In this document: piece by piece, positions 498 to 60,660 of the stretch | Layout of the letters: every line of letters begins with the position of its first letter | How positions within the stretch are numbered: position 1 is the stretch's first letter | From: a virus | Direction: 5' to 3' (one strand) | Length of the DNA: 64,000 bases | Virus record (IMG/VR): IMGVR_UViG_3300012944_000024 | Location: 1 to 64,000 of that record | The notes under the pieces: model-generated | The model's input: only the letters and a program-made list of their open reading frames with translations | Database searches by the model: none | Told to the model about the DNA's origin: nothing | Position numbers and translations under genes: made by a program

Positions 498-764
498 CTA
501 TGCCTGGGAACCCGGGTTCCCAGCAAAAGGGTCGCGATGGATATGACCAAGCGCGAAGCGCGCAACGTGCTCGCGCACCCGACCCGAGTCGCACTTGCGC
601 CGGAGCGGGAAGGCGACCGCCTTGCAGGCCGGGTGCTCGCAGGAGAGCTCAATCACCTGCTCCTCCCACCGCCCCTCCTCGGCGTCGAAGACGCGCGGCT
701 CGTAGCGCCCCACCACGTGCGGAGCCATGTCGGGCCGGTACTCGAGCTTCTTGTCGTTGCTCAT
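498..764 (-). CDS. Hypothetical protein
   Basis: ATGA overlap with upstream gene; ends GNPGSQA, encoded by the 16-bp palindrome plus GGCATAG. Confidence 0.75.
   Translation of the reverse strand: MSNDKKLEYRPDMAPHVVGRYEPRVFDAEEGRWEEQVIELSCEHPACKAVAFPLRRKCDSGRVREHVARFALGHIHRDPFAGNPGSQA
506..521. repeat. 16-bp palindrome GGGAACCCGGGTTCCC copy 1
   Basis: Exact; in CDS tail (GNPGS); 1 nt from GGCATAG box. Confidence 0.98.
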
Positions 765-5510: not shown

Positions 5511-5989
5511 ATGTGCACCCATCGAACCCTCGTAACGATCTTGGAGATCGCCCCTTGTCGCACGCCAAACCGTTCGGCAAGCGTCTTACGTGACTCCCCG
5601 GCCTTAGCAGCAGCGCGGATCTCCAACACCTGTTCGTCGGTCAGCTTGGCGAGATGATGCCCAACCCCTGCCTTGCTATGGCGTCGACCCTTCTTCATCG
5701 AATCGTGGACGTTGTCCTTCTGCGTTCCGACGAAGAGATGTTCGGGGTTCACGCACCGCGGAGTATCGCAAGTGTGCAGGACAAGTAACCCAGCCGGCAC
5801 TGGACCCCTATGCATCCACCACGACACCACGTGCGCGCGATTCGACCTGCTGCGCTTCGTACCCGGGATGAATGCGTAGAAGAAACCGTACCCGTCCTTG
5901 TCCAGACCCCCAGTCCAGAGCCAGCACCCGTCACTCTTCTCTACGTGCGTGAAAAACCGGATCCTCGGTTCGATTGTTCTGGGCGCCAC
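5507..5989 (-). CDS. HNH endonuclease with C-terminal HTH
   Basis: CWLWTG..DKDGYG, AHVVSW, VLHTCDTPRCVNPEHL..GTQKDN, KLTDEQVLEIR. Confidence 0.92.
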   Translation of the reverse strand: MAPRTIEPRIRFFTHVEKSDGCWLWTGGLDKDGYGFFYAFIPGTKRSRSNRAHVVSWWMHRGPVPAGLLVLHTCDTPRCVNPEHLFVGTQKDNVHDSMKKGRRHSKAGVGHHLAKLTDEQVLEIRAAAKAGESRKTLAERFGVRQGAISKIVTRVRWVHI

Positions 5990-6006
5990 GCCTCCCCCTA
6001 TGCCCC

Positions 6007-6022
6007 GGGAACCCGGGTTCCC
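6007..6022. repeat. 16-bp palindrome copy 2
   Basis: Exact; intergenic after ruvC; 2 nt from GGCATAG box. Confidence 0.98.
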
Positions 6023-6027
6023 ACCAG

Positions 6028-6576
6028 CTAGGCGAGCGAGAGGAACGGCAGACCGAGCTCCGAGAGCCCCGCGTTGGCCACGACGAACGCGTCGACCTGG
6101 TCGCCGTCGGCGAACGGGGCACCATGGTCCCAGATCGCCTGATGGGTCACACGCTTCACGTCTTCGCGTGGGAGCTTGCCCAGGATCAGCTTGCGCGCGC
6201 TCGACGCCACCACGGGGCGCAACGTGCGCCCGTAGGTGAATAGCTCGACCCGGCAGACTCCCCCTAGCTCCGCGAGCCTGGTCACGCTGCTCGAGTGCTT
6301 GGAGAAGGCATACCCCTCTACGAAGGTGTGCTGGGCGCGCTTCTCGAGGACGAAGTTGCGCGCCCACCCGGAGATCTTGATCAAGCGCCGGTACTGCCAG
6401 GCGAGAGCGTCAACCCCCGTCTTGACCAGCGCGTCGTCGCCCCCGACGTACGTTTCGAATCGTAATGTCAGCCAGTCGCCCAGCTCCCAACCTTGCGGGA
6501 TGAAGCAGGCGGCGGGCGCAGTGAGCGAGAGGTCGAACCCCACGATCCCGCCGAGCGAACGGACGCGCCTACCCAT
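6028..6576 (-). CDS. ruvC: RuvC-like Holliday junction resolvase
   Basis: VGFDLSLT, FVEGY, LAELGGV, DQVDAF acidic motifs. Confidence 0.85.
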   Translation of the reverse strand: MGRRVRSLGGIVGFDLSLTAPAACFIPQGWELGDWLTLRFETYVGGDDALVKTGVDALAWQYRRLIKISGWARNFVLEKRAQHTFVEGYAFSKHSSSVTRLAELGGVCRVELFTYGRTLRPVVASSARKLILGKLPREDVKRVTHQAIWDHGAPFADGDQVDAFVVANAGLSELGLPFLSLA

Positions 6577-8530
6577 CGACCACCCGCGCGGTCGAGTGCT
6601 TCCCGTCGCTCACGATCTCGATCCGCCCCGGCAGCGCATCCAGCACGCTCGCGTGGTGGGCGATCACGATCCCCTGCCCGAACCCCGCCCGGCCGAGCAG
6701 ACCGGGGAGGTGGGAGGCGAGGGCCCGGCGGTTCTCGCCGTCGAGGGCGCCGAACAGCTCGTCGAGCATCGCGACCCCCCAGCCGGCCATCCGGTCCTGC
6801 CGGAGCCACGCTGACGCGCCCACCTGGAAGGCGAAGCCGGCGAGGTCGTCGGCCCCCCCGCTCCTCTCGCTCGGCTCGAGCTCAAGCTTGTTGGTGAGCT
6901 GCGCGCCCCTCTCCGCCCCGCACCTCGCGCACTCCCGCACCCTGCGCGACGCGGGGAACGCGGCCCCGCACCCGCTGCACTGCGCTGCCAGCCCCGCGGT
7001 CTCCCGGCTCCACACGACCTTCACGGAGAGCTCGATGCCGCTGACCGCCAGGACGTCCTGGTTGGCGCGGTCCTCGATCTCCGCCAGCGCCCCCTCGGCC
7101 ATCCTGCGTTGCGCCCCGCCCTTGCCGAAGATCGCCGCCCCTGCCGCGGCCACCCGCGCGGCCCGTTCGAGCTGGACGAGCTCCTCGTCGATGGTGGCGA
7201 TCTGCACGCCCCGCGCCTCGATCGCCTGGACCGATCCCGATAGCTGGGTGTGCAGGCGCCGCGCGCCCTCGAGCAGCACCTCCACGTTCGCCGCCTCGGT
7301 TGGGTCGTAGGTTCCCGTGGGGGCGCCGAGCTTCGCGTGCTTCTCCTTCGAGACTCGCAGCCGCCGCGCCTCCTCGCGCAAGTCGTCGAGCCGCTGGGAG
7401 TCGCGTCGCCGCACCCGCAGCGCCTCCTGGGCGAGTAGGTGCTCCTGGTGCTTCGCCTCGTACTCGGCCCCCGTGGCCTCGTCCTCGCTCTTGTCGAGCG
7501 CCGCCTGGGTCAAGTTGGCCGAGGTCTCCGAGACCACGAACGCCTGCGCGGGGCACGCCTTGCCGGCGATCGGGCAGACCCCGTCGAAGTGGCCGAGCGA
7601 GACGTTCATGCGCGCGCGGACCCGCTCGCCGATCGCCAGGCACCTCGCCCCCAGCCGCTGCAGCTCCCGGCCCAGCTCACCTTCGCTCGCCTCGAGCGCG
7701 TCGGTCTTCGGGGCCACGTTGCGCGCCGCGAGCTCGCGCCCCTGCGCGATGATCGCGTCGTAGCGGACGGCGTCCTCGGCGAGCCGGGCGCGCTCCGCGC
7801 CCTTCTCCTTCTCCCATCGGAACTGGCCCAGCTCCCTCTCCAACCTCTCGACCTCCCCCACCTGCACAGCCGCGCGCCCCGCGACCTCCTCGCCCGTCTT
7901 GCACCCGTGCCGCTCGAGCTCCCATCGCACCACCGCCTCGGCGTCCGCGCGCTCTCGCCGCTTGCCCTCGACGCGCGTCGAGAACTCCGCCAGCACCGCC
8001 TGGGCGTCGTCCTCGCACCGCTCGAGCGGCTCGAGCCGGATCCACGACGAGACCGTCTCCATCCTCGTGCCCGGATCCATCGAGACCATCCGGGCCATCT
8101 CGCGCTGGCGCATGTAGCAGAGCAGGAAGTCCTCGCGGTTGAGGCCGATGATCTGCTCGATCTGTCCTTGCGCCTCGGCGTTCATACTCGCGCCCTCGGG
8201 GTTGCCGGGCGGGAAGAGGGTCACCCGCTCGGGATGCGCGGCCGAGAAGGTCCGCACGATCCGGTGCCCGCTCGAGAGGTTGAGCTCCACCTCCAGACCC
8301 TTCTCCCCGCGTGTGATGAGGTCGGCCTTGCGCCGGCAGTCCTCGGGCATCCGGCCGTGCAGGCACCAGTCGATCGCGCCCACCAGGCTCGACTTGCCCA
8401 GGCGGTTCGAACGGTCCACCGCGACCGTCGAGGTCGCGACGAGCGCGTAGAAAGTCGAGCGCAGCGCAAGCTCCTGATCGCCCTTGAAGCACCGCCAGTT
8501 GCGCAGCTTGAGGCGCTCGATCGTGATCAC
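6569..8530 (-). CDS. sbcC: SbcC/Rad50-like (gp46-like) ATPase
   Basis: LKLRNWRCF, SNRLGKSS Walker A, coiled coil with central Cys pair, SGG signature, MLDELFGALD Walker B/D-loop, VIAHH. Confidence 0.9.
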   Translation of the reverse strand: MITIERLKLRNWRCFKGDQELALRSTFYALVATSTVAVDRSNRLGKSSLVGAIDWCLHGRMPEDCRRKADLITRGEKGLEVELNLSSGHRIVRTFSAAHPERVTLFPPGNPEGASMNAEAQGQIEQIIGLNREDFLLCYMRQREMARMVSMDPGTRMETVSSWIRLEPLERCEDDAQAVLAEFSTRVEGKRRERADAEAVVRWELERHGCKTGEEVAGRAAVQVGEVERLERELGQFRWEKEKGAERARLAEDAVRYDAIIAQGRELAARNVAPKTDALEASEGELGRELQRLGARCLAIGERVRARMNVSLGHFDGVCPIAGKACPAQAFVVSETSANLTQAALDKSEDEATGAEYEAKHQEHLLAQEALRVRRRDSQRLDDLREEARRLRVSKEKHAKLGAPTGTYDPTEAANVEVLLEGARRLHTQLSGSVQAIEARGVQIATIDEELVQLERAARVAAAGAAIFGKGGAQRRMAEGALAEIEDRANQDVLAVSGIELSVKVVWSRETAGLAAQCSGCGAAFPASRRVRECARCGAERGAQLTNKLELEPSERSGGADDLAGFAFQVGASAWLRQDRMAGWGVAMLDELFGALDGENRRALASHLPGLLGRAGFGQGIVIAHHASVLDALPGRIEIVSDGKHSTARVVDG

Positions 8531-9171
8531 AATATTCCTCGAACGATCTTGTCGATCTCCGTTTCTGGAGGGATCGGGCCTCTCGCATCGATCAGGACTC
8601 GAATGCACTCGTCCTGATCTCCTCCCTCTACAACGCGCAGATGCTTCAACTCAGACCACGCAAACCAACGAGCAAACCGCTCTAGTACAATTGGTTCGTC
8701 AATGGGGATCGACGCGTTTACTCGTTCTACTCGCAACGAGGGTGGTGTTTTGGAGACAGCTTTTTCTAACTGTCTCCTCTTCCAATCGGGCATCGGGGGG
8801 CGATTTAGCTCTGGCTCCCTGACGAGAGCTGTCCCTCTGATGCCACGAGAATCGACAACGTCGACTCGGAGAATCGTTCTCCCAATGAGAAGCCAACAGC
8901 CTTTGACGATCCCCTGCTGAGCGTATCGACGGCGCTCATCTACCTGCTGGTGCCAGGCAACGAGTTGTTCTTCTAGCTTGTAGACACGATCCTGAAGATC
9001 CTGCCGCCACTCGCTCGGAAGCTTGTCCGACTTCGCGATGTTGCATGGAGCACACGCGAGCACGAGGTTGCGGGGTAATGAACTACCCCCTCTTGAGAAC
9101 GGAACGACGTGATCTTCGTGGAACGGGCCGGTCTTCGTCTCGCAGTAGAAGCAACGCTCAACGATTCTCAT
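8527..9171 (-). CDS. HNH endonuclease (McrA-like N-terminal domain)
   Basis: CFYC...EDHVVPFSRGG....NLVLACAPCNIAKSDK; lower-GC DNA. Confidence 0.88.
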   Translation of the reverse strand: MRIVERCFYCETKTGPFHEDHVVPFSRGGSSLPRNLVLACAPCNIAKSDKLPSEWRQDLQDRVYKLEEQLVAWHQQVDERRRYAQQGIVKGCWLLIGRTILRVDVVDSRGIRGTALVREPELNRPPMPDWKRRQLEKAVSKTPPSLRVERVNASIPIDEPIVLERFARWFAWSELKHLRVVEGGDQDECIRVLIDARGPIPPETEIDKIVRGIL

Positions 9172-10273: not shown

Positions 10274-10990
10274 TCACACCTCGAAGATCTGAAAGCTCGG
10301 ACGGTTGCGCTCCTCGCCGTGCGTGAGGCGCGCGAGCGAGCCGGCGACGTGGACCCGCACCCCGTTGGGCGCCGTCCAGACCTGCCGCTCGTGGTAGTGG
10401 CCCCCCAGGACGAGCCACTCGGGCCGGCACGCCTCCCAGGGGAATGGGACGTCGCGCCCTCGCGGCATCTCCCTACTCTCCTCGCCGGGCGTGATGCCGG
10501 GATACTGAAGGTGCGTGGCGACGATGGTCGCGCGCGCGTCCGACGTCTGCAGCGACGCGAGCATGGGGGTCGGGGCGTAGGGGCGGTTCAGCGACGGGTA
10601 CGGCAGCCCGATCACCAGCGTCCCGTCGGGCATCTTGAACCGGTCCGCCCGATCGAAGACGTAGACCGAGAACGAGGCCAACCCCTTGAGGGGCGAGAGC
10701 ATCGTCGTCCCCTCCCCGTCCTCGGCGACGTCGTGGTTACCGGCGACCCATCCGGATGTGATGTCGTGCGTGGCGAGCTCCGTCGCGACGTCCACCGCGA
10801 GCTCCGCGCACCGGAGCACGATGCTCCCTGAGTCGGGATCGGCGAGGTCGCCGGTGAAGAGGTAGAGCCCGCACTTCTCGTCGATCGCGGCGCGCACCGT
10901 CTGCTCCATCGCGCGCGCGACGTCGTCGAATCGTCGGAACCCTGCTGTTGAGTGATCAGCATGAGCATCAGAGCAATGTAGGATCTTCAT
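10274..10990 (-). CDS. sbcD: SbcD/Mre11-like metallophosphoesterase nuclease
   Basis: MKILHCSDAH, FTGDLAD, VAGNHD, ATH, LGGHYH, AGSL. Confidence 0.92.
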   Translation of the reverse strand: MKILHCSDAHADHSTAGFRRFDDVARAMEQTVRAAIDEKCGLYLFTGDLADPDSGSIVLRCAELAVDVATELATHDITSGWVAGNHDVAEDGEGTTMLSPLKGLASFSVYVFDRADRFKMPDGTLVIGLPYPSLNRPYAPTPMLASLQTSDARATIVATHLQYPGITPGEESREMPRGRDVPFPWEACRPEWLVLGGHYHERQVWTAPNGVRVHVAGSLARLTHGEERNRPSFQIFEV

Positions 10991-11235
10991 GCGTCCGAGA
11001 TCCCTTGCAGCAACTCCGCGGCCCACTGCTCAATGCGCTCGGGCAATTCTCCGGTCTCTTCCCAGCGTTCGACTTCCTCGATCGTCAACGTCATCCCTTC
11101 CCCGCGCGCCGCTTCTTCGATACCGACGCGCACCGTAGGGGGGAGCTCGACCTGACGCGGCCGGATCATCCACCCACCCCGTCCGCAAGAGTCTTTGGGT
11201 TCACGCCCACGCGCGCAGCGATCTTCATGCGTCCG
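10982..11235. repeat. 16-bp direct repeat GATCTTCATGCGTCCG (10982-10997 and 11220-11235)
   Basis: Both copies encode the same stop/start junction (..DA*/MKI). Confidence 0.9.
10987..11169 (-). CDS. Small hypothetical protein
   Basis: 60 aa; ATGA overlap with sbcD; lies between 16-bp direct repeats. Confidence 0.6.
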   Translation of the reverse strand: MIRPRQVELPPTVRVGIEEAARGEGMTLTIEEVERWEETGELPERIEQWAAELLQGISDA

Positions 11236-11910: not shown

Positions 11911-12797
11911 GACCCGATCCCTTGCATCAGCTCCTCCGATGCCTTGATCCCACGCTTGGTGATGAGGTTGAGCGTCCGGAGCACCGCGAGCGCGCCCGAA
12001 AGGCTCCCGCTCTTCTTGTACCCGGTCGCGTCGACGATGAAGTCGACATCGATCGCGTTGGGGTAGGAGGACACGATCGCCTGCAACACCGTCGCCCCCA
12101 TCGTCCCGACCCGATCGCACCAGAACTCGAGCAGCTTGGCGCCAGTCGGGATCTTCGCGTGAGCGGGGACGTGCGGGATCCCCTTCGCGGTGATGGAGAT
12201 GTGCTTCCCATCCCCCTCGATCCACCCCGCGGCGCGCAGCCGAGCGAGCGCACCCGAGAAGCTCCCGCTCCTGGAGTAGCCGGTCAGGATGGAGAGCTGC
12301 GCGTCCGTCGTCGGCTTCGGCGCGCGCTGCGCGAGGACGACGAGCATCTTGGCGTCCATCGGGCTGCGCGGCTCCGTCCCGCTTCCCGACGCGCCGAAGC
12401 TGAGCAGACCGTTGGCGGACTCCTTCTTCGCGTCCTCCTCGGCCCACTTGTCGAGCGTCGCCCCCACGACCTTCTTCGCGATCTCCGCCGGCCCGCCGTT
12501 GATCGTGCGCAGATCCGGCGGGTGCCCGACGAGTAGCTCGAGCCGACGCACCTGCAACTCGAGCCGCGCGACGCGCCCTTCGAGCGGGTCGGTCGGGTCG
12601 GCGTACCCGAGACGCACGCGCTTCGATGACGGCTCCGGCAGCACGATCCCCTCGCGCTTGACGAGCTCGTCGACCATGTCGGCCGCCTGCGCCATCCCCT
12701 CGGCGCGCTCGCGCTGCCCATTGGTCGCGTAGACCGCTGCGGCCACGCGGATGCGTTTGGCCAGGTCGGTCTCGGGGGTCTTGCGCGAGCGACTCAC
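11907..12797 (-). CDS. Protein with two tandem winged-helix-like repeats
   Basis: Repeated TGYSRSGSFSGALARLR / TGYKKSGSLSGALAVLR. Confidence 0.7.
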   Translation of the reverse strand: MSRSRKTPETDLAKRIRVAAAVYATNGQRERAEGMAQAADMVDELVKREGIVLPEPSSKRVRLGYADPTDPLEGRVARLELQVRRLELLVGHPPDLRTINGGPAEIAKKVVGATLDKWAEEDAKKESANGLLSFGASGSGTEPRSPMDAKMLVVLAQRAPKPTTDAQLSILTGYSRSGSFSGALARLRAAGWIEGDGKHISITAKGIPHVPAHAKIPTGAKLLEFWCDRVGTMGATVLQAIVSSYPNAIDVDFIVDATGYKKSGSLSGALAVLRTLNLITKRGIKASEELMQGIGS

Positions 12798-13975
12798 CCG
12801 CCCACCACGTCGGCACGCGCCGCCACATCCACCCCAAACGCCGCCCGCACGTCGCGCTCCAAGGCGTCGAGCAGGTCCGGCTTCGCGCTCGTCAGAAACC
12901 GCTTCACCCCCTGCCACCGGTTGCCATCATAGCTGAGCCACCCCGTCCCCTGGATGACGCCCAGCTCCTTGCCGAGCTCGAGGAGATCGCGCGCGCGATC
13001 GAACCCCTCGGGCGTCCAGGCCCCGTTGCTGGTGCAGAAGTCCGCCTTCTCGACAACGTCCTGGCGCGCGGAAACCTTCGTCTTGTGGATCTCGACCAGG
13101 TGGCGCTCGCCGACGATGGGGCTCTTCCAGTCGTCCTCGACCTCGTGGATCATCTTCGCCGCCGAGACGCGCACGTCGAGCGACGCGTCGAAGTAGAGCG
13201 ACGACCCGCCCGTCGTCTTCCAGTCGCTGCCGAACTTGCGCGCCATCGCCGATGCGTCGCGGTCCGCGCTCTCGCGCGCGACGAAGAGGATCGAGCAGCC
13301 CGTCTTGTGCATCAGCGGGGTGAGCTGGTCGAGCCACGCCTTGTTGAGCGCCGCCTTGATCATCCCCGACGCCCCCCGGTACCCGTCGACACTCCCGTCC
13401 TTGGACTCAGCGGCGAACTTGCGGATCTTCTCCTGGATGTCGAGCGGGACGAGCTTGCCGATCGAGTCGACGACGAAGAGACAGGTCGTGTCGGCGTCGA
13501 CCTTGCCCTTGTCGCGCGCCTCCGCCAGCCCGAGCGCGATACGGCGCACGTCGTCGACCGCCTGCTCGTACGAGTCGGGGCGCGCGGCGATGAAGCCCGC
13601 GTCGTCGACGTATCGCCCGAGCATCGTCTCGAGCCATGGGGCAGGGGTAGTGCACTCCGCGTCGATCAGTGCGTACATGTGCCGACGCCGGAGAAAGGAG
13701 AGCCCGATCCCGTTGGCAAAATTCGTCTTGCCCTGCCCGCTGGGTCCGTGAACCATCGCGACCCGGTCGGTCGGCCACCCGCCCACGCGGATCTTGAAGT
13801 CGACGCCCGGGAAGATCGTCGGCACCGCCCGCACCCGACGGAGCACCTCGCGCGCCTGCCGAAAGCTCTTCGACGACTTGGCGATCTCCGCAAACACCTT
13901 CGCCCCCGGGCGCTTGTCGGGCACCACGGGGGCGAAGGCTTCTACCGTCTCTACCGGGGGTCTGCGTCGCGCCAT
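12794..13975 (-). CDS. recA: RecA/UvsX-like recombinase
   Basis: VGGWPTDRV, GPSGQGKT Walker A, IDAE, VVDSIG Walker B, TTGGSSLYFDAS, KTKVS. Confidence 0.93.
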   Translation of the reverse strand: MARRRPPVETVEAFAPVVPDKRPGAKVFAEIAKSSKSFRQAREVLRRVRAVPTIFPGVDFKIRVGGWPTDRVAMVHGPSGQGKTNFANGIGLSFLRRRHMYALIDAECTTPAPWLETMLGRYVDDAGFIAARPDSYEQAVDDVRRIALGLAEARDKGKVDADTTCLFVVDSIGKLVPLDIQEKIRKFAAESKDGSVDGYRGASGMIKAALNKAWLDQLTPLMHKTGCSILFVARESADRDASAMARKFGSDWKTTGGSSLYFDASLDVRVSAAKMIHEVEDDWKSPIVGERHLVEIHKTKVSARQDVVEKADFCTSNGAWTPEGFDRARDLLELGKELGVIQGTGWLSYDGNRWQGVKRFLTSAKPDLLDALERDVRAAFGVDVAARADVVGG

Positions 13976-16391: not shown

Positions 16392-19169
16392 CTATGCCGC
16401 CGTCTCCTTCGCGCGCTCGACCGCCGCGACCAGCTCGGGTGAGACCGCCACGAGCAACCCGATCTCCACCGGCCTATCCCCCGCCCTCATCACCACCGGG
16501 CGCGAACCCGGGTGCTCGCGCAGCACCGCCTTCACCCGCAGCCGCATCTGCGCGTCGGCCCGCTCGTCGCCCGTCTCGGGCAGCTCGACCACGAAGGGTC
16601 CGTCGAGCGCGGCGGTCGCGCTCATCGCGGGAGGCGGGGCGAAGAGATCGGACTGCGCGGCGTTTCTCTTTCGCCTCTGGGAACCCGGGTTCCCAACGAC
16701 CCCGGCGAGCTCGCCCTGCCCGGCCTTGACCGCCTTCTCCCACGTCTTTTTCGGGCGCGTCTTGTCGTACCCGCTCCAGTCGTAGTGGGGGAAGGCGGCG
16801 TCGACGAGCGCGCGCGTCGGCTTCCACACCGCGTCCCAGAGGTAGTGGCGATCGAGCTCGCCCACGTAGTCGGCCGCCGGGATCACCTTCTGCGGGCTCT
16901 CGGTCGCGTCGACCACGACGTACGAGACCCGCGTGCCCTCGTCGACCATCTCGCCGCGCTTCTTGAGCTCGCGCCCCACCCGCACGTGCACCGACTCGGC
17001 CATCGGGGTCCCGTCCTTCTTCACCTTCTGGCTCTTCTCGAACTCGCGCAGCGACTTGCCGAGGGCGGCCGACTGGGCGACCTCCTCGATCGGCAGCGGC
17101 TCGCGGAGCACGTGGTGGAAGTAGCGGTCGACGATCGGGACGAAGTCGCTCGGGTCCTCGCTGCGCTCCTCGAGCAGCTTCTGGATGCACTCGAACTGCA
17201 GCGCGCGCGTCAGCTTGAACGTGTCTCCCCGCTTGTACTCGAACCCTCTTATGTCCGGCTTGCCGCGCGGGGGCGGGAACTGCTCGTGGTGCTTGCCGCA
17301 ATCTCGGCAGGTCATCGTCTTTACGTCGAGCGCACCGGGCTGCTGCTCGCCGTCCTTGACGACGTCGCACGTACAGCTCGCCGTCCCCTTGAAATGTCGA
17401 AAGACGCCCGCGTAGCGCTTCTTCGTCGCCCCCCCGCCACTCTTCTTCACGAAGACCACGCGCTCGTACTCCTTCTCGTAGGCGAGCTCCAGGTGGTTCT
17501 CGACGCACCCGTGCTCGCGAGCGATCCGCGGGTAGAGCTCCTTGTTGCACCACTCGACGAACTCGGCGACCTGCTCGCGCGTGACGTTGCGGAGCATCGC
17601 GGCGTCCGTGTCGCCATAGATCGGATCCATCCCGCGCTCCTGCGCCGCGCTCATCGTCTGGTGGATCAGGTAGACCCCCGTCGTCGAGGTCGACTCCGCG
17701 ACCGCCCGCTTGTGAAACCGCGAGAACACCGAACCGATCACCCCGAACGCGGCGTTCGCAATGACCTTGAACGCCATGCTCATGCGGAACGCCTGCCACC
17801 ACTCGGGGGAGCCAGCAGCCGCCTCCGCCTGCTTCTTGCTCCAGTACTTTCGGAGCTTGCGGACCTCCTTCATGAAGAGCGGCAAGAGACCCGGCACGTC
17901 GGTGCGGAACCCGGCGCGGGTCGCGGGGGCGCGCGAGCAACCCGGCGGGATGGGCCCGTTGATCGGCACGAGCGGCTCGATCGTCTCGGGCGACATGTTC
18001 CACGTCATCTGGATCGACGGGTACATCCCGCTGAAGTCCAGCACGTGTGCGTCCTTGACGATCCCCGTCAGCTTCGGCTCGAGCACGAACGCGCCCGCGA
18101 ACTTCTCGTGCGGCTCGCCCTGCTCCCACACCCGCGTGGGCGCGCGCAGCCCGCGCTCGCCGTAGAGCCGCAAGAGGTACGCGTCGACGTAGCTGGTCGG
18201 GTTGGCGCTCTGCGTGTCCGGGAAGGTCCGAGCGATCTCGCAGATCGCGTCGTTGATGGCGAGGTGGCCGAGCTTCTTCTCGAGCTTCGCGAGCAGCACG
18301 GTGTCGCGCACGCAGTAGCGGAGCATCCGGAGCCGCTCGGGCCCCCCCGCCTCCCACGCCTCCCACGTCTTGCCCGCGTCGAAGTTTCCCTTCCCTTCCT
18401 TCAGATGGATGCGCGCGACGCTCTCGAGCGCGAGGGACTCCTTCTCGTCGCCGCTCTCAGCGGCATTCTTGTTCATCCGTTCGTAGAGGACCATCTGGTC
18501 CATCCAGAGCCACCGGTCGAAGGTCCGGACCTTCGCGCCCAGCGCCTGCGTGCGCAGCTTGACGATCGGGAAGTCGAAGTCGTCGCCGAACCACGCCACC
18601 ACCTGGTCGAACCCGCCGAGCTGCTCCCAGAGCCCCTCGATCAGCTCGCGCTCCGCCTCGTCGCTGTCCTCGCGCAGCACCCGCGCCGATACCACGCGCT
18701 CGTCCTCGTCGACCAGGCTCCAGCACAGCACCCTCGCCTTGCCCCGGCGGGCCACCGCGGGCGGGACCCTGCTGTCGGTCTCGATGTCGAGAAAGACCCG
18801 CCGCGGCTTCTGGATCGTCGCCGGATGGTCGGAGAAGAACCGACGGAACGGATCCACGTCCCCCTCGTAGCTCGCGACGGCGTGCTCCTCGCGCAGCCAC
18901 CTGACGACGTTCGCGCGGTACTCGGGCGCGCGGTAGCGGATGCGCAGGAAGTCCTTCTCGCTCGTGATCCCCGCGACCGCGCTCGCCTCGCGCAGCTGCC
19001 GCAGCTCCGTCGGCTGGATCTCGCCGTGCTTGTGGAAGCTCGACCAGTCCGCGGGACGCCGATGCGCCCCGAGTTTCCCTGCGTCGTCGCGAAAGAGAAG
19101 GACCAGCTCGGAGCCGTCGACGAACCCGTTGACGTAGGCGCGATCGGGCATACGGATCGTGAGGAGCAT
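16392..19169 (-). CDS. polB: Family B DNA polymerase with 3'-5' exonuclease
   Basis: ExoI LDIETD, ExoII FGDDFDFP, ExoIII YCVRD; motif A DFSGMYPS, B KVIANAAFG, C YGDTD, KKRY. Confidence 0.96.
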   Translation of the reverse strand: MLLTIRMPDRAYVNGFVDGSELVLLFRDDAGKLGAHRRPADWSSFHKHGEIQPTELRQLREASAVAGITSEKDFLRIRYRAPEYRANVVRWLREEHAVASYEGDVDPFRRFFSDHPATIQKPRRVFLDIETDSRVPPAVARRGKARVLCWSLVDEDERVVSARVLREDSDEAERELIEGLWEQLGGFDQVVAWFGDDFDFPIVKLRTQALGAKVRTFDRWLWMDQMVLYERMNKNAAESGDEKESLALESVARIHLKEGKGNFDAGKTWEAWEAGGPERLRMLRYCVRDTVLLAKLEKKLGHLAINDAICEIARTFPDTQSANPTSYVDAYLLRLYGERGLRAPTRVWEQGEPHEKFAGAFVLEPKLTGIVKDAHVLDFSGMYPSIQMTWNMSPETIEPLVPINGPIPPGCSRAPATRAGFRTDVPGLLPLFMKEVRKLRKYWSKKQAEAAAGSPEWWQAFRMSMAFKVIANAAFGVIGSVFSRFHKRAVAESTSTTGVYLIHQTMSAAQERGMDPIYGDTDAAMLRNVTREQVAEFVEWCNKELYPRIAREHGCVENHLELAYEKEYERVVFVKKSGGGATKKRYAGVFRHFKGTASCTCDVVKDGEQQPGALDVKTMTCRDCGKHHEQFPPPRGKPDIRGFEYKRGDTFKLTRALQFECIQKLLEERSEDPSDFVPIVDRYFHHVLREPLPIEEVAQSAALGKSLREFEKSQKVKKDGTPMAESVHVRVGRELKKRGEMVDEGTRVSYVVVDATESPQKVIPAADYVGELDRHYLWDAVWKPTRALVDAAFPHYDWSGYDKTRPKKTWEKAVKAGQGELAGVVGNPGSQRRKRNAAQSDLFAPPPAMSATAALDGPFVVELPETGDERADAQMRLRVKAVLREHPGSRPVVMRAGDRPVEIGLLVAVSPELVAAVERAKETAA
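16679..16694. repeat. 16-bp palindrome copy 4
   Basis: Exact; in PolB linker (GNPGS). Confidence 0.98.
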
Positions 19170-19336: not shown

Positions 19337-20266
19337 TCAACTCCCGATATCCAGCCCAAACTGCGCGGTCCTCTCCATCGCGACCTTCGCGTATGCCGGA
19401 TTGGACTCGATGAGCGTCGCCGACCTCCCCAGGCTCACCGCCGCGCGCCCCGTCGTCCCGCTCCCACCGAACGGGTCGATCACGTGGTCGCCCGGTCGGC
19501 TCCCCGCGAGGATGCACCGGCGCGGTAGCTCGATCGGAAACGTCGCCGGGTGACCGTCAGGCGACTTGTCGAGCTGGATCTCCCACACCGATCGAGCGTT
19601 GCGACCCGCCTCGGGGCCTGCTGAGAGGTAGAGACCATTGTGCGACCCCCGCCCCGGCGCCTTGCTCGGGACGGGACCCACGACGGTGCGGTGGTGATTA
19701 CCCCAGAGCGCGGTCTCGCGGATCGCGTCGGCGTCGTAGAAGTAAACCTCCGACTTAGCCAGCAGGAACACGTGCTCGTAGTCGAGCGTCGGACGGTCAC
19801 GGACGCTCTCGGGGAGGCAGTTCGGCTTGCGCCACAGCACGTCCGCCCGCAAGTACCACCCGTCCGCGCGGAGCGCAAACGCCACCATCCACGGGACGCC
19901 AACCAGATCCTTTCCCTTGAGACCACTCGGAGTCGGACTCCGAGTCCTCATCGCCCGCGCGGGATTCTTCTTGTCCGCCGCGCGCCACGATCGGTTGCCG
20001 CTCGCGTAGGTGTCGCCGAGGTTGAGCCAGATCGTCCCATCATCGCGAAGCACCCGCCTCACCTTTCGGAAGACGCCCACGAGCTCGTCGACGTACTCCT
20101 CGACCGACTTCTCAAGGCCGATCTGCCCGGCGTGGTCGTAGTCGCGCAACCCCCAGTACGGGGGGCTGGTGACGCAGCATCGGAAACGAGCGGGGGAGAG
20201 CTGCGAGAGTACGTCCCGGCAGTCACCGACCAGGACGATCGACTCCGGGGGCCTTCGTTGCCTCAC
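19337..20266 (-). CDS. N4-cytosine DNA methyltransferase, SmaI/XmaI/Cfr9I-like (predicted CCCGGG)
   Basis: CCVTSPPYWGLRDY, SGNRSWRAADKKNPARAM, PESVRDRP, HPATFP, IDPFGGSGTT; specificity inferred from recalled family sequence. Confidence 0.88.
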   Translation of the reverse strand: MRQRRPPESIVLVGDCRDVLSQLSPARFRCCVTSPPYWGLRDYDHAGQIGLEKSVEEYVDELVGVFRKVRRVLRDDGTIWLNLGDTYASGNRSWRAADKKNPARAMRTRSPTPSGLKGKDLVGVPWMVAFALRADGWYLRADVLWRKPNCLPESVRDRPTLDYEHVFLLAKSEVYFYDADAIRETALWGNHHRTVVGPVPSKAPGRGSHNGLYLSAGPEAGRNARSVWEIQLDKSPDGHPATFPIELPRRCILAGSRPGDHVIDPFGGSGTTGRAAVSLGRSATLIESNPAYAKVAMERTAQFGLDIGS

Positions 20267-21507
20267 TCGCCCGGGACGATCCGCTTCACATCGAGCTTCG
20301 CGATCAGCTCCCCCGCCGCATTGCGACCGATGTGGATGTAGACGCGCACGTCGTTGACCAGCTCCCAGACCCCGTAGGGGACGTCGGCGATCTGCTTGGC
20401 CGGCACGCGCTCCTCGGTGCGGTGGGCGGGCCGCTTGTAGAGCCTGACCATGTGCTTGCCCTCGACCGCCGCGACGGTGATCGCGTTGGTCGGGGCGAGC
20501 TTGCCCCGCGCGAGCGCCTTCTTGGCCTTCTTCTTGTCCCTACCGGGCGTCTGCGAGTGGATCCCCTTGCGACCCGCCTGCTGCTCGAGCTCGCGCCGCC
20601 CCACCTCGGGATTGCTTCGCAACTTGTCGAGCAGCTCCTGCTGGAGCTCCTTGTCGTCGATCGAGATGACCAGACGCATCTTGGTCGGACCGATCTGCCT
20701 CGCTTCGTCTTCACTGAATGCGTGCGCGATCCGCTGCAGGTCTTGCGCGTATTTGCGACCCATCCCGAGCTCCGCTCGCGCAAAGTCCTCAAGCTTCGTG
20801 TACGCGGTCTTCCCATCGGGCGTCTTCCTAGACTTCCAGATCTCATTCACTCCGATCTCGTTTAGCTTCCTGCCGATGAGGAAGATGTTGATCCTCGCGT
20901 TTCGCTGCAGCTCGCGGATCTCGGAGACCGCGAAATCCAAGTCGCCCGCCGGCACCAATTCCGCCACCGCCTCGACAGTCGACTCGTGCACGAGCGCGCG
21001 CGTCCCCGTCTCCTCGGGCGCTTCAACCTCTCCCCCATCTTCGTTCTCGTTCTTACCGTCGCCGGGATTGTCGGCCACCTGGTCGCTCTCGTCGTGATCC
21101 CCGCAGAAGGGGCACGCGTCGAAGTCGTGCATGGTCGAGACCCCACCGCACTGGTCGCACGGCGAGACCGCCTGCTTGGCCTTGGCGAAGTGTTCCTTCA
21201 GCGCCAGGACGAGCTCGGGAAGGGTGGCCTTCTTGCTGACCTTCAGCTTGAGCTTGGCGATCGCCAGCCCAATCGCTGCCGGCTCGAGCTTGCTCTCCTC
21301 GATCCCGTGCACGTACTGGATCTCGTTCGTCGCGGCTGCCGTCTTGATCGGCGTGACCTTACCCATGGCGTCGTCCTTTTCTTCTTCCTGCGCCGGCGGC
21401 GCATCCGTCCCTTCTACCGCACCCGCACCGTGGCATCCGCACTCCTCGATCGGCTTGTCGCAATCGAGGCACCGCGCCGCACCCAACCACTCCGGCATCT
21501 TGCTCAT
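20263..21507 (-). CDS. Putative DNA-binding protein (Zn motifs plus DUF3102/ParB-HTH-like region)
   Basis: CxxC motifs; IFLIGRKLNEI...LEDFARAELGMGRKYAQDLQRIA...IGPTKM. Confidence 0.6.
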   Translation of the reverse strand: MSKMPEWLGAARCLDCDKPIEECGCHGAGAVEGTDAPPAQEEEKDDAMGKVTPIKTAAATNEIQYVHGIEESKLEPAAIGLAIAKLKLKVSKKATLPELVLALKEHFAKAKQAVSPCDQCGGVSTMHDFDACPFCGDHDESDQVADNPGDGKNENEDGGEVEAPEETGTRALVHESTVEAVAELVPAGDLDFAVSEIRELQRNARINIFLIGRKLNEIGVNEIWKSRKTPDGKTAYTKLEDFARAELGMGRKYAQDLQRIAHAFSEDEARQIGPTKMRLVISIDDKELQQELLDKLRSNPEVGRRELEQQAGRKGIHSQTPGRDKKKAKKALARGKLAPTNAITVAAVEGKHMVRLYKRPAHRTEERVPAKQIADVPYGVWELVNDVRVYIHIGRNAAGELIAKLDVKRIVPGE

Positions 21508-22391: not shown

Positions 22392-24117
22392 TCACCCGGC
22401 TCGGTCGCTCGCCGTCACCATGTCCGCGCCGCACGTGCAGTGGCTGAGAAGCTCGTTGCACTCGACGCAGCAGTTCTCGTTCGGCGCGAGCCAGGCGGGC
22501 AGCCGGGAACCCGGGTTCCCAGCGCCGAGTTGCTCGGGGTCCGACTGCGCGCCGTCGAGCACCAGGGGGTCGACGGCCGCCGCGTTGATCAGCTGGTCAT
22601 CCGTCGGCTCGACGAAGGGGTAGTCGGGCTCCACCGGCGCGGGCTCCGCGACCCCGTCGAGGAAGTGCGAGCGGTCGACCGTCTTGAGGCCCGCGCGCGT
22701 CGCGAGCTCCGCGACGTGCGAGAAGACCAGGTGGTCGCGCGCCCGCGTCGCCGCCACGTACATCAGACGTCGCTCCTCTTCCTGGTCCCCTCGGGGGTGC
22801 GGGAAGATCGTCTCGTTGCACCCGACCACCCAGACGGTCGGCCATTCGAGACCCTTGGATCGATGAATGCTCATCAGGGTGAGTGAGTTGTCGCGCTTGC
22901 CCCGCTTCTGCCGGGCGCTCTCGAGGACGTTCTGGTCGACGTAGTCGAGCAGCTCGCCGACCGTCTTGAACGCCTGAGCGACCCGGAGCAGCTCGCGCAC
23001 GTTCGCGCCGTGCGAGCTGTCGACGCTGTCCTCCGCCCCCTCCTCCTTCTCGATGTACTCGATGTAGTGGGTCTGCCGGACGACTTGGTCGAGCACCTCG
23101 TAGGGCCCGCCATCCATCTCGCCGATCCGGCCGATCAGGTCGACCCACTCGTTGGCGCTCTGCACCTGCCGGCGCTGCAGCCCGGCCTGCTGGGTCGCCT
23201 TCGCGACCACGTCGGCCCAGTAGGCGTCCCGGTTGTTCGGGTCCGCCCGGAGCGCCATGACGCGCTCGACGAACTTCGCCCCGAGGAATCGGAAGGGGGC
23301 GTTGATGCATCGGCGGATCCCGTCGCCGTCCTTGTCTCGGTCGAAGGCGACGCGCAGGTAGGCGAGCAAGTCCTTGACCTCCATCACCCACCACCATCAG
23401 GTTGCGGTGCGAGCTCGCGAGAAATGCCTGTAGCTCCTTCTGCACGCGGGAGTTGTCCTGCGCCTCATCGGTGATGACGTACTCGAACCGGTGCGCCCAG
23501 CTCGCGCGCACGACCTCGTCGTCTCGGAGCAGCCGATGCGCGAAGACGAGCATGTCGTCGAACGTCAGCAGCCCGGCCGACTCGATCAGATCCTGCGACG
23601 TCACCCACGCCTGGATCGCCTTGTCGGACTCGCGCCCGAAGCGATTGCGCGCGAGCCCGCTCGCCTCCTCCGAACCAGGCTCGAACGCGTTGGCCTTGCA
23701 GTGCGCGATGAACTTCCGGACGCGCGCGAGATCGGCGCCGATCCAGTTCATGTGCTTGTACCCGAGGGTCTGCTTGACGAAGCTCTTGGCCTTGTCCTTG
23801 TCGTCGACGATCCACGCGCTCGCCGGGTGCTTCTCCTCGCGCAGGATCGACTGGCAGAGCGCGTGCCACGTGTTGCACTTGACGCCCGAGATCCCCAGGT
23901 GCCGGACGCGCGCGTCCATCTCGTCGGCCGCCTTGCGCGAGAAGGTCAGCATCACGATCCGGTCGGGGTCGACCCCCTCCTCGACCATCGCGCCCACGCG
24001 GTGGACGATCGAAAATGTTTTTCCGCACCCCGCCACTGCCAAAACTTGGCACGGACCGGCGCGGTGCCTGACCACCGCAATCTGCTCGGGGTTGAGCCCC
24101 TGCTCGAATCGGCTCAC
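22392..24117 (-). pseudogene. uvrD: UvrD/PcrA (SF1) helicase with internal deletion and frame change at ~23385
   Basis: N-half: LNPEQ, AVAGCGKT, LTFSRKAA, DEAQD, VVGD; C-half in another frame: EVKDLLAYLR, LMSIHRSKGLEW, EERRLMYVAATRAR; motif III tail and motif IV absent. Confidence 0.85.
22505..22520. repeat. 16-bp palindrome copy 5
   Basis: Exact; in UvrD tail (GNPGS). Confidence 0.98.
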
Positions 24118-27431: not shown

Positions 27432-27680
27432 TCAGCCTCCGTCCGTGTCGTCCTGGGAACCCGGGTTCCCAGCCTCGAGCCCCAGGATCCGGACCGCCTT
27501 GAGGAAGTCGCGCACGAGCAACTCGCTGCGCGCGATCGCCCGCTTCAGCTCGACGGCGATCTTCCACGCCTTGTCCCAGTCGCTCTCGGCGTGCGCGAGC
27601 TGCAGATCCTTCTCACACCGCAGCACCTGGCGGAACGAGCGCGTCATGTCCGCGCCGATCTTCTTCGCAGTGCGCGCCAT
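27432..27680 (-). CDS. Hypothetical protein
   Basis: 82 aa, TGATG overlap; tail GNPGS from palindrome. Confidence 0.65.
   Translation of the reverse strand: MARTAKKIGADMTRSFRQVLRCEKDLQLAHAESDWDKAWKIAVELKRAIARSELLVRDFLKAVRILGLEAGNPGSQDDTDGG
27455..27470. repeat. 16-bp palindrome copy 6
   Basis: Exact; CDS tail (GNPGS). Confidence 0.98.
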
Positions 27681-30726: not shown

Positions 30727-32190
30727 TTATACCGACCGGAGCCGGCGAATGTACTCCGACCCCTCGATCCATTCGCCATTCCACAACGCGCGCACCCGAA
30801 ACCACTTGTTCAAATTCTCAATCACTCTGCGTCCATAAACGTGGATATCGTGCAAGTACCAAAGGCGACCGGATTCCTTCCCACTCGCACTACGGCAGAG
30901 TCTCCCCTTCGTTTGATTCACCTGCTGACGATTGTTTCCGATCGGGGTCACGCAGATCCCGCGTGACACGGTGGGCAAGTCGAGTCCCTGCGCGATCGCC
31001 TGGTACGTCCCCACCCCGGCCATCTTGCGATCCTCACCCTGCCCGACGCGCAGCCCCGATGCGGTTCGAAAGAAAACTTCCTCCTGCCCCTTGCCCCCAA
31101 GCATCACCCCACTGCGGTACCCGCGCGCCACGAGCTCAGCGTCGAGGCTGCGCGCGTGCTCGACCCGGTGGGTGAAGAGCAAAACCTGCTCGCCCTGCTT
31201 CATCTCGAGCTCGGCGATCGAGAGCGCGAGCGCGTTGCGCGCCTCGTCACTCACCATCTGGGCCAGGAGCTTGTTGAAGTCCTGGCGGTAGCGGTACCAG
31301 GGCGCGCGAAACTCAGTGGGCACCACGCAGATCTCCACGTCCACGATCGCCCCTGACTCGATGAGTCGTTCGGGCGCGATCTCACACGCGACCTCGCCGA
31401 AGAGGTCGCGTGTGAGAAACTCCTTCTGGTCCTTGCGACTCGAGTCGGCCGAGACTCCGATGCGGTAGCGCGACCGGAACGGATCGACCGACGCGAATAG
31501 AGTCGGGGCCGCGAACCTCTGCACCTCGTCGCACGCGACGACGTCGTAGCGATAGGCGAGCTCATGATCCCCACGCTCGAACCGGCTCACGATCGTCTGC
31601 TGCATCGCCAAGTCGAGCCACTCGTGACCCCCGTCGCGGTCGCCGCGCACCACGCCCGGCTCGAACCCAAGCTCCTCCACGCACCGCGTCCTCCATTGCT
31701 CGAGCAGGTTGCCCGTCCAGACCATCACGAGCGCGCGGCGCTTGAGGCGCGCGAGCAGCCCGAAGAGAGCGCACGTCTTACCCGCCCCGGTCGCCGCATG
31801 CAGCAGGCAGTTCTGCTGACGCTCCGCCGCGTCGATCATCTCGCGCTGGTAGTCGCGCGCCACCTTCAGGTGGTCTGGGAACCCGGGTTCCCAGTTCTCC
31901 CAGACGCGCGCGTCCTCGACCTCCCAGGTGAGCCCGTGCGAGCGGAGCACGCTGCGCACGCGCGCGAAGCCGCCGCGCGGGAAGCTGATCTCGCCGCCCG
32001 GTAGGGCGGGGTCGTCGACGCAGACGAACGTCTCGTAGCGCTCGGGCTCCCCGGTCCCCGCGATCGTGCTGGGCGAGAAGGCGGGGTTGTCGTGGGTGAA
32101 CTGGCGCTCGAGGTCTCGACGCACTCGATCACCAATCGGTTCGAGCGCGATCCGGATCCTCGAGTCGAGCAGGATGCGCACGTCGGCCAA
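30727..32190 (-). CDS. SF2 (XPB/Ssl2/UvsW-like) helicase
   Basis: RDYQ, ATGAGKT, DEVQ, GVSA, QGLDLP, QTKGRLCR; TTG start. Confidence 0.92.
   Translation of the reverse strand: MADVRILLDSRIRIALEPIGDRVRRDLERQFTHDNPAFSPSTIAGTGEPERYETFVCVDDPALPGGEISFPRGGFARVRSVLRSHGLTWEVEDARVWENWEPGFPDHLKVARDYQREMIDAAERQQNCLLHAATGAGKTCALFGLLARLKRRALVMVWTGNLLEQWRTRCVEELGFEPGVVRGDRDGGHEWLDLAMQQTIVSRFERGDHELAYRYDVVACDEVQRFAAPTLFASVDPFRSRYRIGVSADSSRKDQKEFLTRDLFGEVACEIAPERLIESGAIVDVEICVVPTEFRAPWYRYRQDFNKLLAQMVSDEARNALALSIAELEMKQGEQVLLFTHRVEHARSLDAELVARGYRSGVMLGGKGQEEVFFRTASGLRVGQGEDRKMAGVGTYQAIAQGLDLPTVSRGICVTPIGNNRQQVNQTKGRLCRSASGKESGRLWYLHDIHVYGRRVIENLNKWFRVRALWNGEWIEGSEYIRRLRSV
31877..31892. repeat. 16-bp palindrome copy 7
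   Basis: Exact; inside SF2 helicase (WEPGFP). Confidence 0.98.
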
Positions 32191-32715: not shown

Positions 32716-32894
32716 GGGGCAGGGCGGCGCGCCTTGGGAACCCGGGTTCCCGGACGGTGCGTCCGGAGATCGTCACGCCCGAGAAGGCTCACCTGCCCGA
32801 GCGCGGCGCTCTGCCGCATCGTCAGCGTGTCCTCCTTGGGCTCGAGGAGAAAGGCGACTACCATCGGGGCGGTGAGGATCCGGACCCGGATCAC
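32712..32894 (-). CDS. Small hypothetical protein
   Basis: Abuts holin-like gene; tail GTRVP from palindrome. Confidence 0.5.
   Translation of the reverse strand: MIRVRILTAPMVVAFLLEPKEDTLTMRQSAALGQVSLLGRDDLRTHRPGTRVPKARRPAP
32736..32751. repeat. 16-bp palindrome copy 8
   Basis: Exact; CDS tail (GTRVP). Confidence 0.98.
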
Positions 32895-33380: not shown

Positions 33381-33704
33381 ATGCGGTTCGTCGCCACCCT
33401 TAACTCGAGAATCCCAACCGGCCACCCCCATAGCCCCACCATCGGGACTCCGTCTTCTGACTATCGGAAGATCATCGAGGCGCCGAACTGGGTCGATGCG
33501 CGCCGCTACGCCCAGACGATCGATCCGAACTCGGTCGTGGTGAGCGCAACCCCCGCGGATGCTCAACCCACCGATGTGGAGCTGCGCTGGATCGGCCACG
33601 ATGGCGCCGAGGGCGGCGGACCCAATGCGAAACGCCTGCAGCACCGAAGTCGAGAACCAAGGTTCTCGACTCGCGACGCCGAGACGGGTTGGCAGGATCT
33701 CTGA
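33381..33704 (+). CDS. Hypothetical protein (opposite-strand moron)
   Basis: GGGGAGGG RBS, MRFVATLNSR... Confidence 0.65.
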   Translation: MRFVATLNSRIPTGHPHSPTIGTPSSDYRKIIEAPNWVDARRYAQTIDPNSVVVSATPADAQPTDVELRWIGHDGAEGGGPNAKRLQHRSREPRFSTRDAETGWQDL

Positions 33705-33724
33705 TCCGGGCATCGTGGATCCGC

Positions 33725-34797: not shown

Positions 34798-35352
34798 ATG
34801 AGACGTATCGCCGCCCTCTTCGCCGCCCTCCTTCTGCCCGCCTGCGGGGGGCCGCCCTTCACCACCGCGGATCGGGCCGCCACGCCGCCCAGCGACGAGG
34901 CTGGGAACCCGGGTTCCCAGGTGCCGATCCCCGACCCCGTGGGCGACGCCGCCTCGGCTGGCAACCGGGACGACGCGGGGCTGCCAGACCCCCCCGCCCC
35001 CCTCCCCACCTCCCCCACCCCGCCTGGCAGCCCCGAGGCGGGCTCGCCGCCCGTCGACCCACCCGACGCCCCCCCGCCCGCGCGCGAGGCCACAGCGCCC
35101 TCGTGCGGGCCCGGCAACTGCGCGGGCTGCTGCGACAGTACGGGTACGTGCCAGCGGGGAGGGTCCGACACCGCCTGCGGGGCGTCGGGCAACGCGTGCG
35201 GAGATTGTGCCCCTTTGACGTGCCTCTCGGGCGCGTGCGTGGGGGCTACGTGCATGCCCGCGCTCTGCCCGGCGTGCAGCAATGGGCTGTCGTGCTGCGC
35301 GGCCGGTGGGTGCGGGTGCGTCGGGGGCGCGGGGCTCTGCGTCGCGAACTAG
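34798..35352 (+). CDS. Pro-rich/Cys-rich lipoprotein (myxobacterial style)
   Basis: MRRIAALFAALLLPAC lipobox; Pro linker; CGPGNCAGCC...CGASGNACGDC. Confidence 0.8.
   Translation: MRRIAALFAALLLPACGGPPFTTADRAATPPSDEAGNPGSQVPIPDPVGDAASAGNRDDAGLPDPPAPLPTSPTPPGSPEAGSPPVDPPDAPPPAREATAPSCGPGNCAGCCDSTGTCQRGGSDTACGASGNACGDCAPLTCLSGACVGATCMPALCPACSNGLSCCAAGGCGCVGGAGLCVAN
34903..34918. repeat. 16-bp palindrome copy 9
   Basis: Exact; in lipoprotein linker (GNPGS). Confidence 0.98.
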
Positions 35353-45657: not shown

Positions 45658-45673
45658 GGGAACCCGGGTTCCC
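45658..45673. repeat. 16-bp palindrome copy 10
   Basis: Exact, extends to 22 bp; 9 nt after tape measure stop. Confidence 0.98.
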
Positions 45674-60644: not shown

Positions 60645-60660
60645 GGGAACCCGGGTTCCC
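60645..60660. repeat. 16-bp palindrome copy 14
   Basis: Exact; 5 nt after stop at 60666. Confidence 0.98.

Follow-up and report, generated by a model that had tools for sequence, protein, structure and literature searches.

We describe an orphan DNA methyltransferase gene in a 64,000-nucleotide stretch of viral DNA (hereafter the window), which makes up the first 64 kb of the 98,407-bp IMG/VR virus record IMGVR_UViG_3300012944_000024 (G000). The gene codes for a member of the SmaI/Cfr9I/XcyI/Pac25I clade of N4-methylcytosine (m4C) enzymes, and its predicted target, CCCGGG, forms the centre of a perfect 16-bp palindrome that is iterated in the same genome. From sequence comparison we favour the view, which we hold to be reasonably likely, that this is an acquired orphan methylase with an anti-restriction function and that methylation of the palindromes is a by-product. 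The overlap between methylase and palindrome is real, and most likely incidental or secondary. The source record is rated complete, has a G+C content of 68% and carries nearly all of its genes on the minus strand; a megablast search with 8 kb of sequence gave no match among GenBank phages. The methylase gene and its diagnostic motifs are listed here.

19337..20266, minus strand: orphan beta-class N4-cytosine DNA methyltransferase gene, predicted target CCCGGG (309 aa; assigned from PF01555, a clade profile and a tree)
20156..20170, minus strand: catalytic motif IV, TSPPY, residues 33-37 (read off the translation)
19949..20002, minus strand: clade-specific segment SGNRSWRAADKKNPARAM, residues 89-106 (matches the XcyI-/SmaI-linked consensus)
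19451..19477, minus strand: S-adenosylmethionine (AdoMet)-binding motif I, DPFGGSGTT, residues 264-272 (from the translation; invariant in alignment A1)

The reading frame is an intact one of 309 aa, and its GTG start codon forms a GTGA overlap with the stop codon of the gene upstream. The protein matches the Pfam family N6_N4_Mtase (PF01555) with 151.4 bits against a cut-off of 26.7, and the match spans profile positions 2-221 of 221. Motif IV lies N-terminal to motif I, an order that places the enzyme in the beta class, and SPPY is the usual form of motif IV among N4-cytosine enzymes. Between motif VIII and motif X there is an insertion of about 35 residues (about 185-220).

In a translated search of annotated plasmids and phages the query was found to be 49.5% identical, over 94% of the protein, to M.Pac25I of plasmid pRA2, the neighbour of which is a Pfam RE_XcyI protein (E 6e-110). 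A methylase from an Agrobacterium plasmid is 50% identical and also adjoins an RE_XcyI protein (E 1.6e-104), and one from a 4.4-kb Klebsiella plasmid (49.5% identity) is encoded beside a nuclease of the Pfam SmaI family (E 8e-51) and a C protein. The p05 protein of phage phiAH14a shows about 46-50% identity (46% over 99% of the protein). M.Pac25I is experimentally CCCGGG-specific, and p05 expressed in E. coli shields CCCGGG from SmaI (PMC4936722). All methylases from the SmaI class and from the XmaI/Cfr9I/Pac25I/XcyI class are close sequence relatives (PMC1920265, Table 1); the product C-m4C-CGGG is listed for M.SmaI, M.Cfr9I and M.XcyI, and the same is suggested for the remainder (PMC1920265). 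For p05 it has been inferred that the first C is modified (PMC4936722), whereas M.SmaI, M.Cfr9I and M.XcyI modify the second (PMC1920265).

Cellular homologues gave a consistent picture. We took the 80 best in species-representative genomes (46-54% identity; many phyla and also some archaea are represented), and 63 of them have an adjacent CCCGGG-type nuclease, which belongs to the XcyI family in 46 cases and to the SmaI family in 17. Among ten neighbours checked beside the remaining, orphan homologues no nuclease of another family was found, the genes being housekeeping or unknown ones. The closest homologues of the query are P0002 (76% identity) and P0005 (60%). A quick maximum-likelihood tree with Shimodaira-Hasegawa-like approximate likelihood ratio (SH-aLRT) support put the query within a clade (97) to which both endonuclease-linked groups belong, with XcyI-linked lineages on either side of it, and within a subclade (89) made up of phiAH14a p05, the enzyme of a related phage, G017, and four orphan cellular genes. 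The query is 48-58% identical to 66 endonuclease-linked enzymes, the XcyI-linked and SmaI-linked groups are 46-66% identical to each other, and phiAH14a p05 is comparable (median 53%). A profile hidden Markov model (HMM) built from the endonuclease-linked members only scored the query at 395 bits and p05 at 403, whereas other PF01555 methylases of related phages reached 37-65.

A segment specific to the clade is located between motifs VI and VII/VIII. Here the query reads SGNRSWRAADKKNPARAM...GLKGKDL, in agreement with the XcyI-linked consensus SGNRGWRAPDKKNPARAM and the SmaI-linked consensus SGGRTWRDADKKNKGRAM at nearly every well-conserved position, and most positions of the segment are conserved at 80% or more in the linked methylases. 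Solved methylases of other specificity (among them TTHA0409, M.PvuII, M.RsrI, CcrM, MboIIA and DpnA) can be aligned to the catalytic and AdoMet-binding parts only, not to residues 93-221. A preliminary description of this DNA, made from the letters alone, had called the segment characteristic of the clade, and it does match the consensus of both endonuclease-linked groups; the further claim that this is a SmaI/Cfr9I-type CCCGGG methylase agrees, as a prediction, with the homologues, their linked nucleases, the tree, the clade HMM and the published enzymes (PMC1920265, PMC4936722). We conclude that the enzyme belongs to the SmaI/Cfr9I/XcyI/Pac25I m4C clade and that its target is very probably CCCGGG.

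With M.Pac25I (pRA2), M.Cfr9I, M.XcyI and M.SmaI the query shares the PF01555 beta-class fold, TSPPY, the segment SGNRxWRxxDKKNxxRxM...GLKPKDL, about 50% full-length identity and placement in the clade (PMC1920265). Unlike them it is phage-borne, has neither a partner nuclease nor a C protein, and carries the insertion before motif X; its specificity is a predicted one. In these respects it resembles p05 of the Pseudomonas phage phiAH14a, which in function is its nearest analogue and is likewise a solitary phage gene of the same subclade with an insertion at the same position and a presumed anti-restriction role, although the segment of p05 is more diverged than that of the query, and phiAH14a, unlike G000, is a 55-kb temperate phage without a reported iterated palindrome.

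No SmaI- or XcyI-family endonuclease was found when the whole 98-kb genome was searched in all six frames with profile HMMs. The gene is therefore an orphan and not part of a Type II restriction-modification system, which confirms the earlier remark that no cognate restriction enzyme is seen. One open reading frame (ORF), 33689-34129 on the plus strand, had shown a 60-aa BLAST similarity (40%, E 6e-4) to the N-terminus of the Pac25I nuclease; we rejected this as a chance match, because it is supported neither by Pfam nor by the XcyI-family HMM. The methylase gene lies between the following two genes.

20263..21507, minus strand: conserved core gene, 414 aa, upstream of the methylase, its stop codon overlapping the methylase start (homologues in the related phages G001, G010 and G011)
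16392..19169, minus strand: family B DNA polymerase (PolB), the downstream neighbour, with one palindrome copy at 16679

The 414-aa gene has no Pfam or PHROG match. In G001, G010 and G011 it and the PolB gene abut or are separated by a gap of no more than about 330 nt, and because they adjoin in these phages the methylase is an insertion private to G000. Two related phages, G010 and G017, do have clade methylases, which sit at other loci. In G010 the methylase gene is followed by the convergent C-terminal remnant (62-98 aa) of a SmaI-family nuclease (G010:48924-49148, minus strand; SmaI-family HMM E 2e-26, 46-57% identity to family members), and this locus looks, from its sequence, like a captured restriction-modification system with a decayed nuclease. 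A CCCGGG site is found at 20270-20275 in G000, 4 nt upstream of the methylase GTG, where the upstream gene has its last codons; chance may account for the site, or it may let the enzyme act on its own translation-initiation region.

Solitary relatives are common among viruses. By tblastn (E <= 1e-3), relatives of the query are encoded on at least 589 viral contigs of IMG/VR, and at the 80 best loci, which we examined (43-53% identity), a nuclease adjoins the methylase in one case only and no CCCGGG-centred iterated palindrome was found. CCCGGG occurs 96 times and GGGCCC 64 times at these 80 loci, against 711 expected from base composition; the depletion of CCCGGG is not specific, because GGGCCC is depleted as well. 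Simple anti-restriction had been offered in the preliminary description as an alternative and is the better-supported reading. Hundreds of viral contigs carry such a methylase, and CCCGGG-centred repeats are absent from the best 80 of these loci.

We then turn to the palindrome itself. The window contains the 16-mer GGGAACCCGGGTTCCC in 14 exact copies, where shuffled sequences predict 0.05, and no copy with 1-2 mismatches was seen there; the whole genome has 20 exact copies and one copy with a single mismatch, at 79455. The consensus extends to CT-16mer-AG. As had been claimed, the predicted CCCGGG target is the exact centre of the palindrome, and this holds in all 20 copies. Some 12 of the 20 are found in short gaps at the borders of genes, where stop codon, palindrome, ribosome-binding site and start codon follow one another in that order, and the others lie within ORFs, for example in the PolB linker. 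The copies in the window are at these positions.

506..521: between divergent gene starts
6007..6022: intergenic, 6 nt past a stop codon
14318..14333: within a 450-aa ORF
16679..16694: within the PolB linker, read GNPGS
22505..22520: close to the 3' end of a UvrD_C-like gene
27455..27470: last codons of a small gene, immediately before the next ribosome-binding site
31877..31892: within a helicase gene
32736..32751: 3' end of a 60-aa ORF
34903..34918: 188 nt upstream of a called gene
45658..45673: 10 nt past a stop codon
49291..49306: 9 nt past a stop codon
56266..56281: 11 nt past a stop codon
58934..58949: past a stop codon, then a GC-rich hairpin
60645..60660: between a stop codon and the ribosome-binding site and start of the next gene

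The window holds 46 CCCGGG sites where 54 +/- 7 are expected, and the genome 75. Outside the repeats there are 54 in the genome, which confirms that the site is not confined to them, and a fourth-order Markov model predicts 62; because this count is near expectation, CCCGGG is neither avoided nor enriched. A GGCATAG box adjoins two of the palindrome copies (498-521 and 5998-6022), in the order palindrome, GGCATAG, start codon.

Whether gene and palindrome travel together can be seen from related phages. The group examined consists of nine PolB phages of roughly 90-100 kb (G000, G001, G007, G008, G010, G011, G013, G016 and G017). A search of viral contigs with a single PolB protein returned no relatives; they were recovered with a two-sequence alignment as query. 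When viral contigs were scanned for the 16-mer, one other multi-copy record was found, G001 (88.8 kb), and almost all of the matches listed in a metagenome scan were single-copy. G001 is a distant relative of G000 (PolB 40-48% identical) and has about 20 copies, 7 exact and 13 near, with the common core GGAACCCGGGTTC; 18 of 21 copies retain the CCCGGG core, and variation is seen in the outer bases. The palindromes of the other phages are as follows.

G010: GATTCGAAAAGCGCTTTTCGAATC, 20 copies with the 10-bp core, 12 with the full 24-mer; AGCGCT centre
G017: AGTTGTCGCCCCGGGGCGACAACT, 12 copies with the 10-bp core, 9 with the full 24-mer; centre CCCCGGGG, which contains CCCGGG
G011: GTTTAGACAGATCGATCTGTCTAAAC, 8 copies with the 24-bp core, 6 with the full 26-mer
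G007: CGCGCCGCGCGGCGCG, 16 copies
G008: TGAACATCGATGTTCA, 7 copies
G016: GTCTCCTCGAGGAGAC, 9 copies

An iterated perfect palindrome without a gap, of 16-26 bp and in 7-20 copies each, is thus present in eight of the nine phages, none having been found in G013. The elements often directly precede a ribosome-binding site or directly follow a stop codon, and their sequence varies by phage; G010 and G011 are closer to G000 than G001 is, yet it is with G001 that G000 shares its palindrome sequence. Arms of the form TGTC(T)...(A)GACA recur in several of the palindromes (G007, G011, G016 and G017). The variation from phage to phage suggests that the palindromes of the group are read by a DNA-binding protein, dimeric and of rapidly changing specificity, or by a host factor.

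The methylase is distributed differently. A clade enzyme is encoded by three of the nine phages (G000, G010 and G017). It occurs in two of the three phages with CCCGGG-centred palindromes (G000 and G017, not G001) as against one of the five with other palindromes (G010), which amounts to no association. No PF01555 methylase or C5 methylase was found in G001, a record that is essentially whole, because the gene order of G000 continues across its joined ends. In G010 the clade methylase is intact and retains the full segment despite an AGCGCT-centred palindrome, and in the G017 enzyme (L051:1489-2508, minus strand) the SGNR...KKNPARAM segment has been replaced by a longer, unrelated stretch, so that its specificity may have shifted. 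Gene and palindrome are separately inherited, because G001 has the palindrome without the gene and G010 the gene with a different palindrome; the co-occurrence of gene and 16-mer across related phages, which the preliminary description had named as one check on its proposal, accordingly breaks down. We conclude that the palindrome system is a lineage trait of freely varying sequence and that the methylase belongs to the accessory genes and occurs sporadically.

The favoured reading can now be put as a sequence of steps. The gene would have been acquired horizontally and inserted between two conserved genes of the replication module; the overlap between its start and the stop upstream suggests co-expression with them. 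Its product, predicted to be an active, solitary AdoMet-dependent N4-cytosine methylase that most probably modifies one cytosine per strand of CCCGGG, would act on replicating phage DNA at all 75 sites, and its main role would be protection from restriction enzymes of the SmaI type (CCC^GGG) and of the XcyI/XmaI/Cfr9I type (C^CCGGG), enzymes that are found widely among bacteria. Because of this specificity all 20 palindromes would be methylated at their centre; this would not be why the palindromes exist. The palindromes themselves would be constrained cis-elements unable to lose CCCGGG; as 20 fixed sites could not be shed, the capture of a matching methylase may therefore have been favoured. 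On this direction of cause, unpurgeable restriction sites in fixed cis-elements would supply a concrete selective reason for acquiring the gene.

Several points weigh against this reading. The terminal branch of the query is long (1.55) and its insertion is private, so that a shift in specificity is possible. The completeness of G001 is rated at 95%, and methylation could come from its host. A CCCGGG palindrome centre and a clade methylase coincide in both G000 and G017, and a functional link could underlie this. Finally, we considered whether methylase-less phages avoid CCCGGG and rejected the idea: G011 and G013 have no sites, but many are present in G006, G007, G008 and G016. No clear rule of carrying the methylase or avoiding the site emerges, because methylase-less phages can be rich in CCCGGG and a GGGCCC control tracks CCCGGG.

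The long branch and the insertion between motif VIII and motif X bear first of all on the target. They would fit an enzyme that is inactive or that acts on a related but different site (CCGG, CCSGG or a longer word), and the target would then coincide with the palindrome centre in part or not at all; the identity of just about 50% to characterised enzymes, and the rewritten segment of the G017 enzyme in the same subclade, are in keeping with this. However, the query retains nearly all of the highly conserved positions of the segment, its catalytic and AdoMet-binding motifs are intact, and among the 80 closest cellular homologues no clade member was seen beside a nuclease of another family. Moreover phiAH14a p05 is as divergent and has an even longer insertion, yet is experimentally CCCGGG-specific (PMC4936722). 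We therefore regard an altered or lost specificity as unlikely.

A second explanation couples the two elements: N4-methylation of the CCCGGG centre would alter the binding of a dimeric protein to the 20 palindromes, and the methylase would serve, beside or instead of anti-restriction, as a timer or switch of transcription or replication. Methylation-sensitive sites of this kind are known, for example Dam/GATC in pap or agn43 and CcrM/GANTC, where methylase and sites are conserved together and the competing binding protein is known. As in those systems, a methylase target inside a protein-binding site can in principle gate binding. The position of the predicted target at the exact centre of all 20 palindromes speaks for such coupling, as do the constraint on the centre that is implied by its retention in 18 of 21 G001 copies with variable outer bases, the pairing in G017 of a clade methylase with a palindrome centred on CCCCGGGG, and the location of the methylase in the replication module beside a sigma-like gene. 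But, unlike Dam/GATC and CcrM/GANTC, methylase and palindrome are not conserved together here. G001 keeps the palindrome family in an essentially whole record that lacks a PF01555 or C5 methylase, G010 combines an intact clade methylase with an AGCGCT centre, the specificity segment of the G017 enzyme has diverged, the gene is inserted at this locus in G000 alone, and counted over the group the association is absent. The methylation-gated switch or replication timer that the preliminary description had proposed thus finds no support, about 20 palindrome copies being maintained in G001 without the gene, and we consider it a rather doubtful explanation.

A more elaborate form of the same idea is that the palindromes are operators of a genome-wide network into which a captured m4C methylase has been wired, in G000 and independently in G017, with methylation tuning the binding; we judge this to be quite improbable. 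If true, a lytic phage would possess an epigenetic timer that is coupled to replication and based on m4C instead of N6-methyladenine. In a search for a binder restricted to G000 and G001 we found, beside part of a helicase, a protein with a sigma-70 region-4 helix-turn-helix (HTH) and an MT-A70 methylase. The former is a small protein with a Cys motif in addition to the HTH (G000 81520-82158, minus strand), and the MT-A70 methylase (Pfam, E 1e-23), the third methylase of G000, is encoded at 97698-98294 of G000 on the minus strand; both are shared with G001 and G017 only and are absent from G010 and G011. The phages that share the MT-A70 and HTH genes, G000, G001 and G017, are those with CCCGGG-centred palindromes. 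The HTH protein is at present a weak candidate for the palindrome binder.

Comparison was also made with HIP1 (GCGATCGC) of cyanobacteria, an 8-mer present in thousands of copies that co-varies with methylases across genomes (PMC4390886, PMC5861425). The likeness is that of an iterated palindrome, with copies in coding and non-coding DNA, the core of which is targeted by an orphan methylase of the same genome; G000 differs in its 16-20-bp unit, its 20 copies, their frequent placement at gene boundaries and the failure of methylase co-variation among relatives. A HIP1-like origin, in which the methylase and a mismatch-repair-like process create and spread the palindromes, can draw on the analogy of a core targeted by orphan methylases (PMC4390886) and on exact copies that fall within ORFs in several reading frames, but is hardly credible given units of 16-26 bp in about 7-20 copies per genome, often at gene boundaries, instead of 6-8-mers saturating coding DNA, relatives that lack a clade methylase and have unrelated palindrome centres, the occurrence of the same palindrome in methylase-free G001, CCCGGG at its expected frequency outside the repeats, and the lack of such repeats at the best 80 viral methylase loci. 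The earlier suggestion that such a mechanism had generated the repeats is not upheld, since palindrome and methylase do not co-vary among relatives.

By itself the gene adds a further orphan methylase, carried by a phage, to a well-known CCCGGG clade, and its chief use is as a hint that SmaI- or XcyI-type restriction occurs in the host lineage. The real question, which is independent of methylation, is posed by a group of PolB phages with phage-specific iterated perfect palindromes. On site content within this group, CCCGGG is wholly missing from G011 (94 kb, 55.6% GC) and from G013 (89 kb, about 63% GC), the latter having just one GGGCCC; these counts suggest strong CCCGGG avoidance in some members.

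Recombination genes are present in the window at 6028-6576, 6569-8608, 10274-11026 and 12794-13975, all on the minus strand; they code for a RuvC-like resolvase, an SbcD-like nuclease subunit with a 679-aa protein beside it, and a UvsX-like recombinase. The position of the 679-aa protein suggests that it is an SbcC/Rad50 partner. A genome rich in perfect palindromes thus encodes a nuclease of the kind that processes palindromes and hairpins. A second methylase ORF lies at 2854-5580 of the window on the minus strand; its product of 908 aa has a ParB_N domain, DPPY at residue 276 and a weak match to PF01555, and an out-of-frame ORF within it (3791-4708) matches HNH_3.

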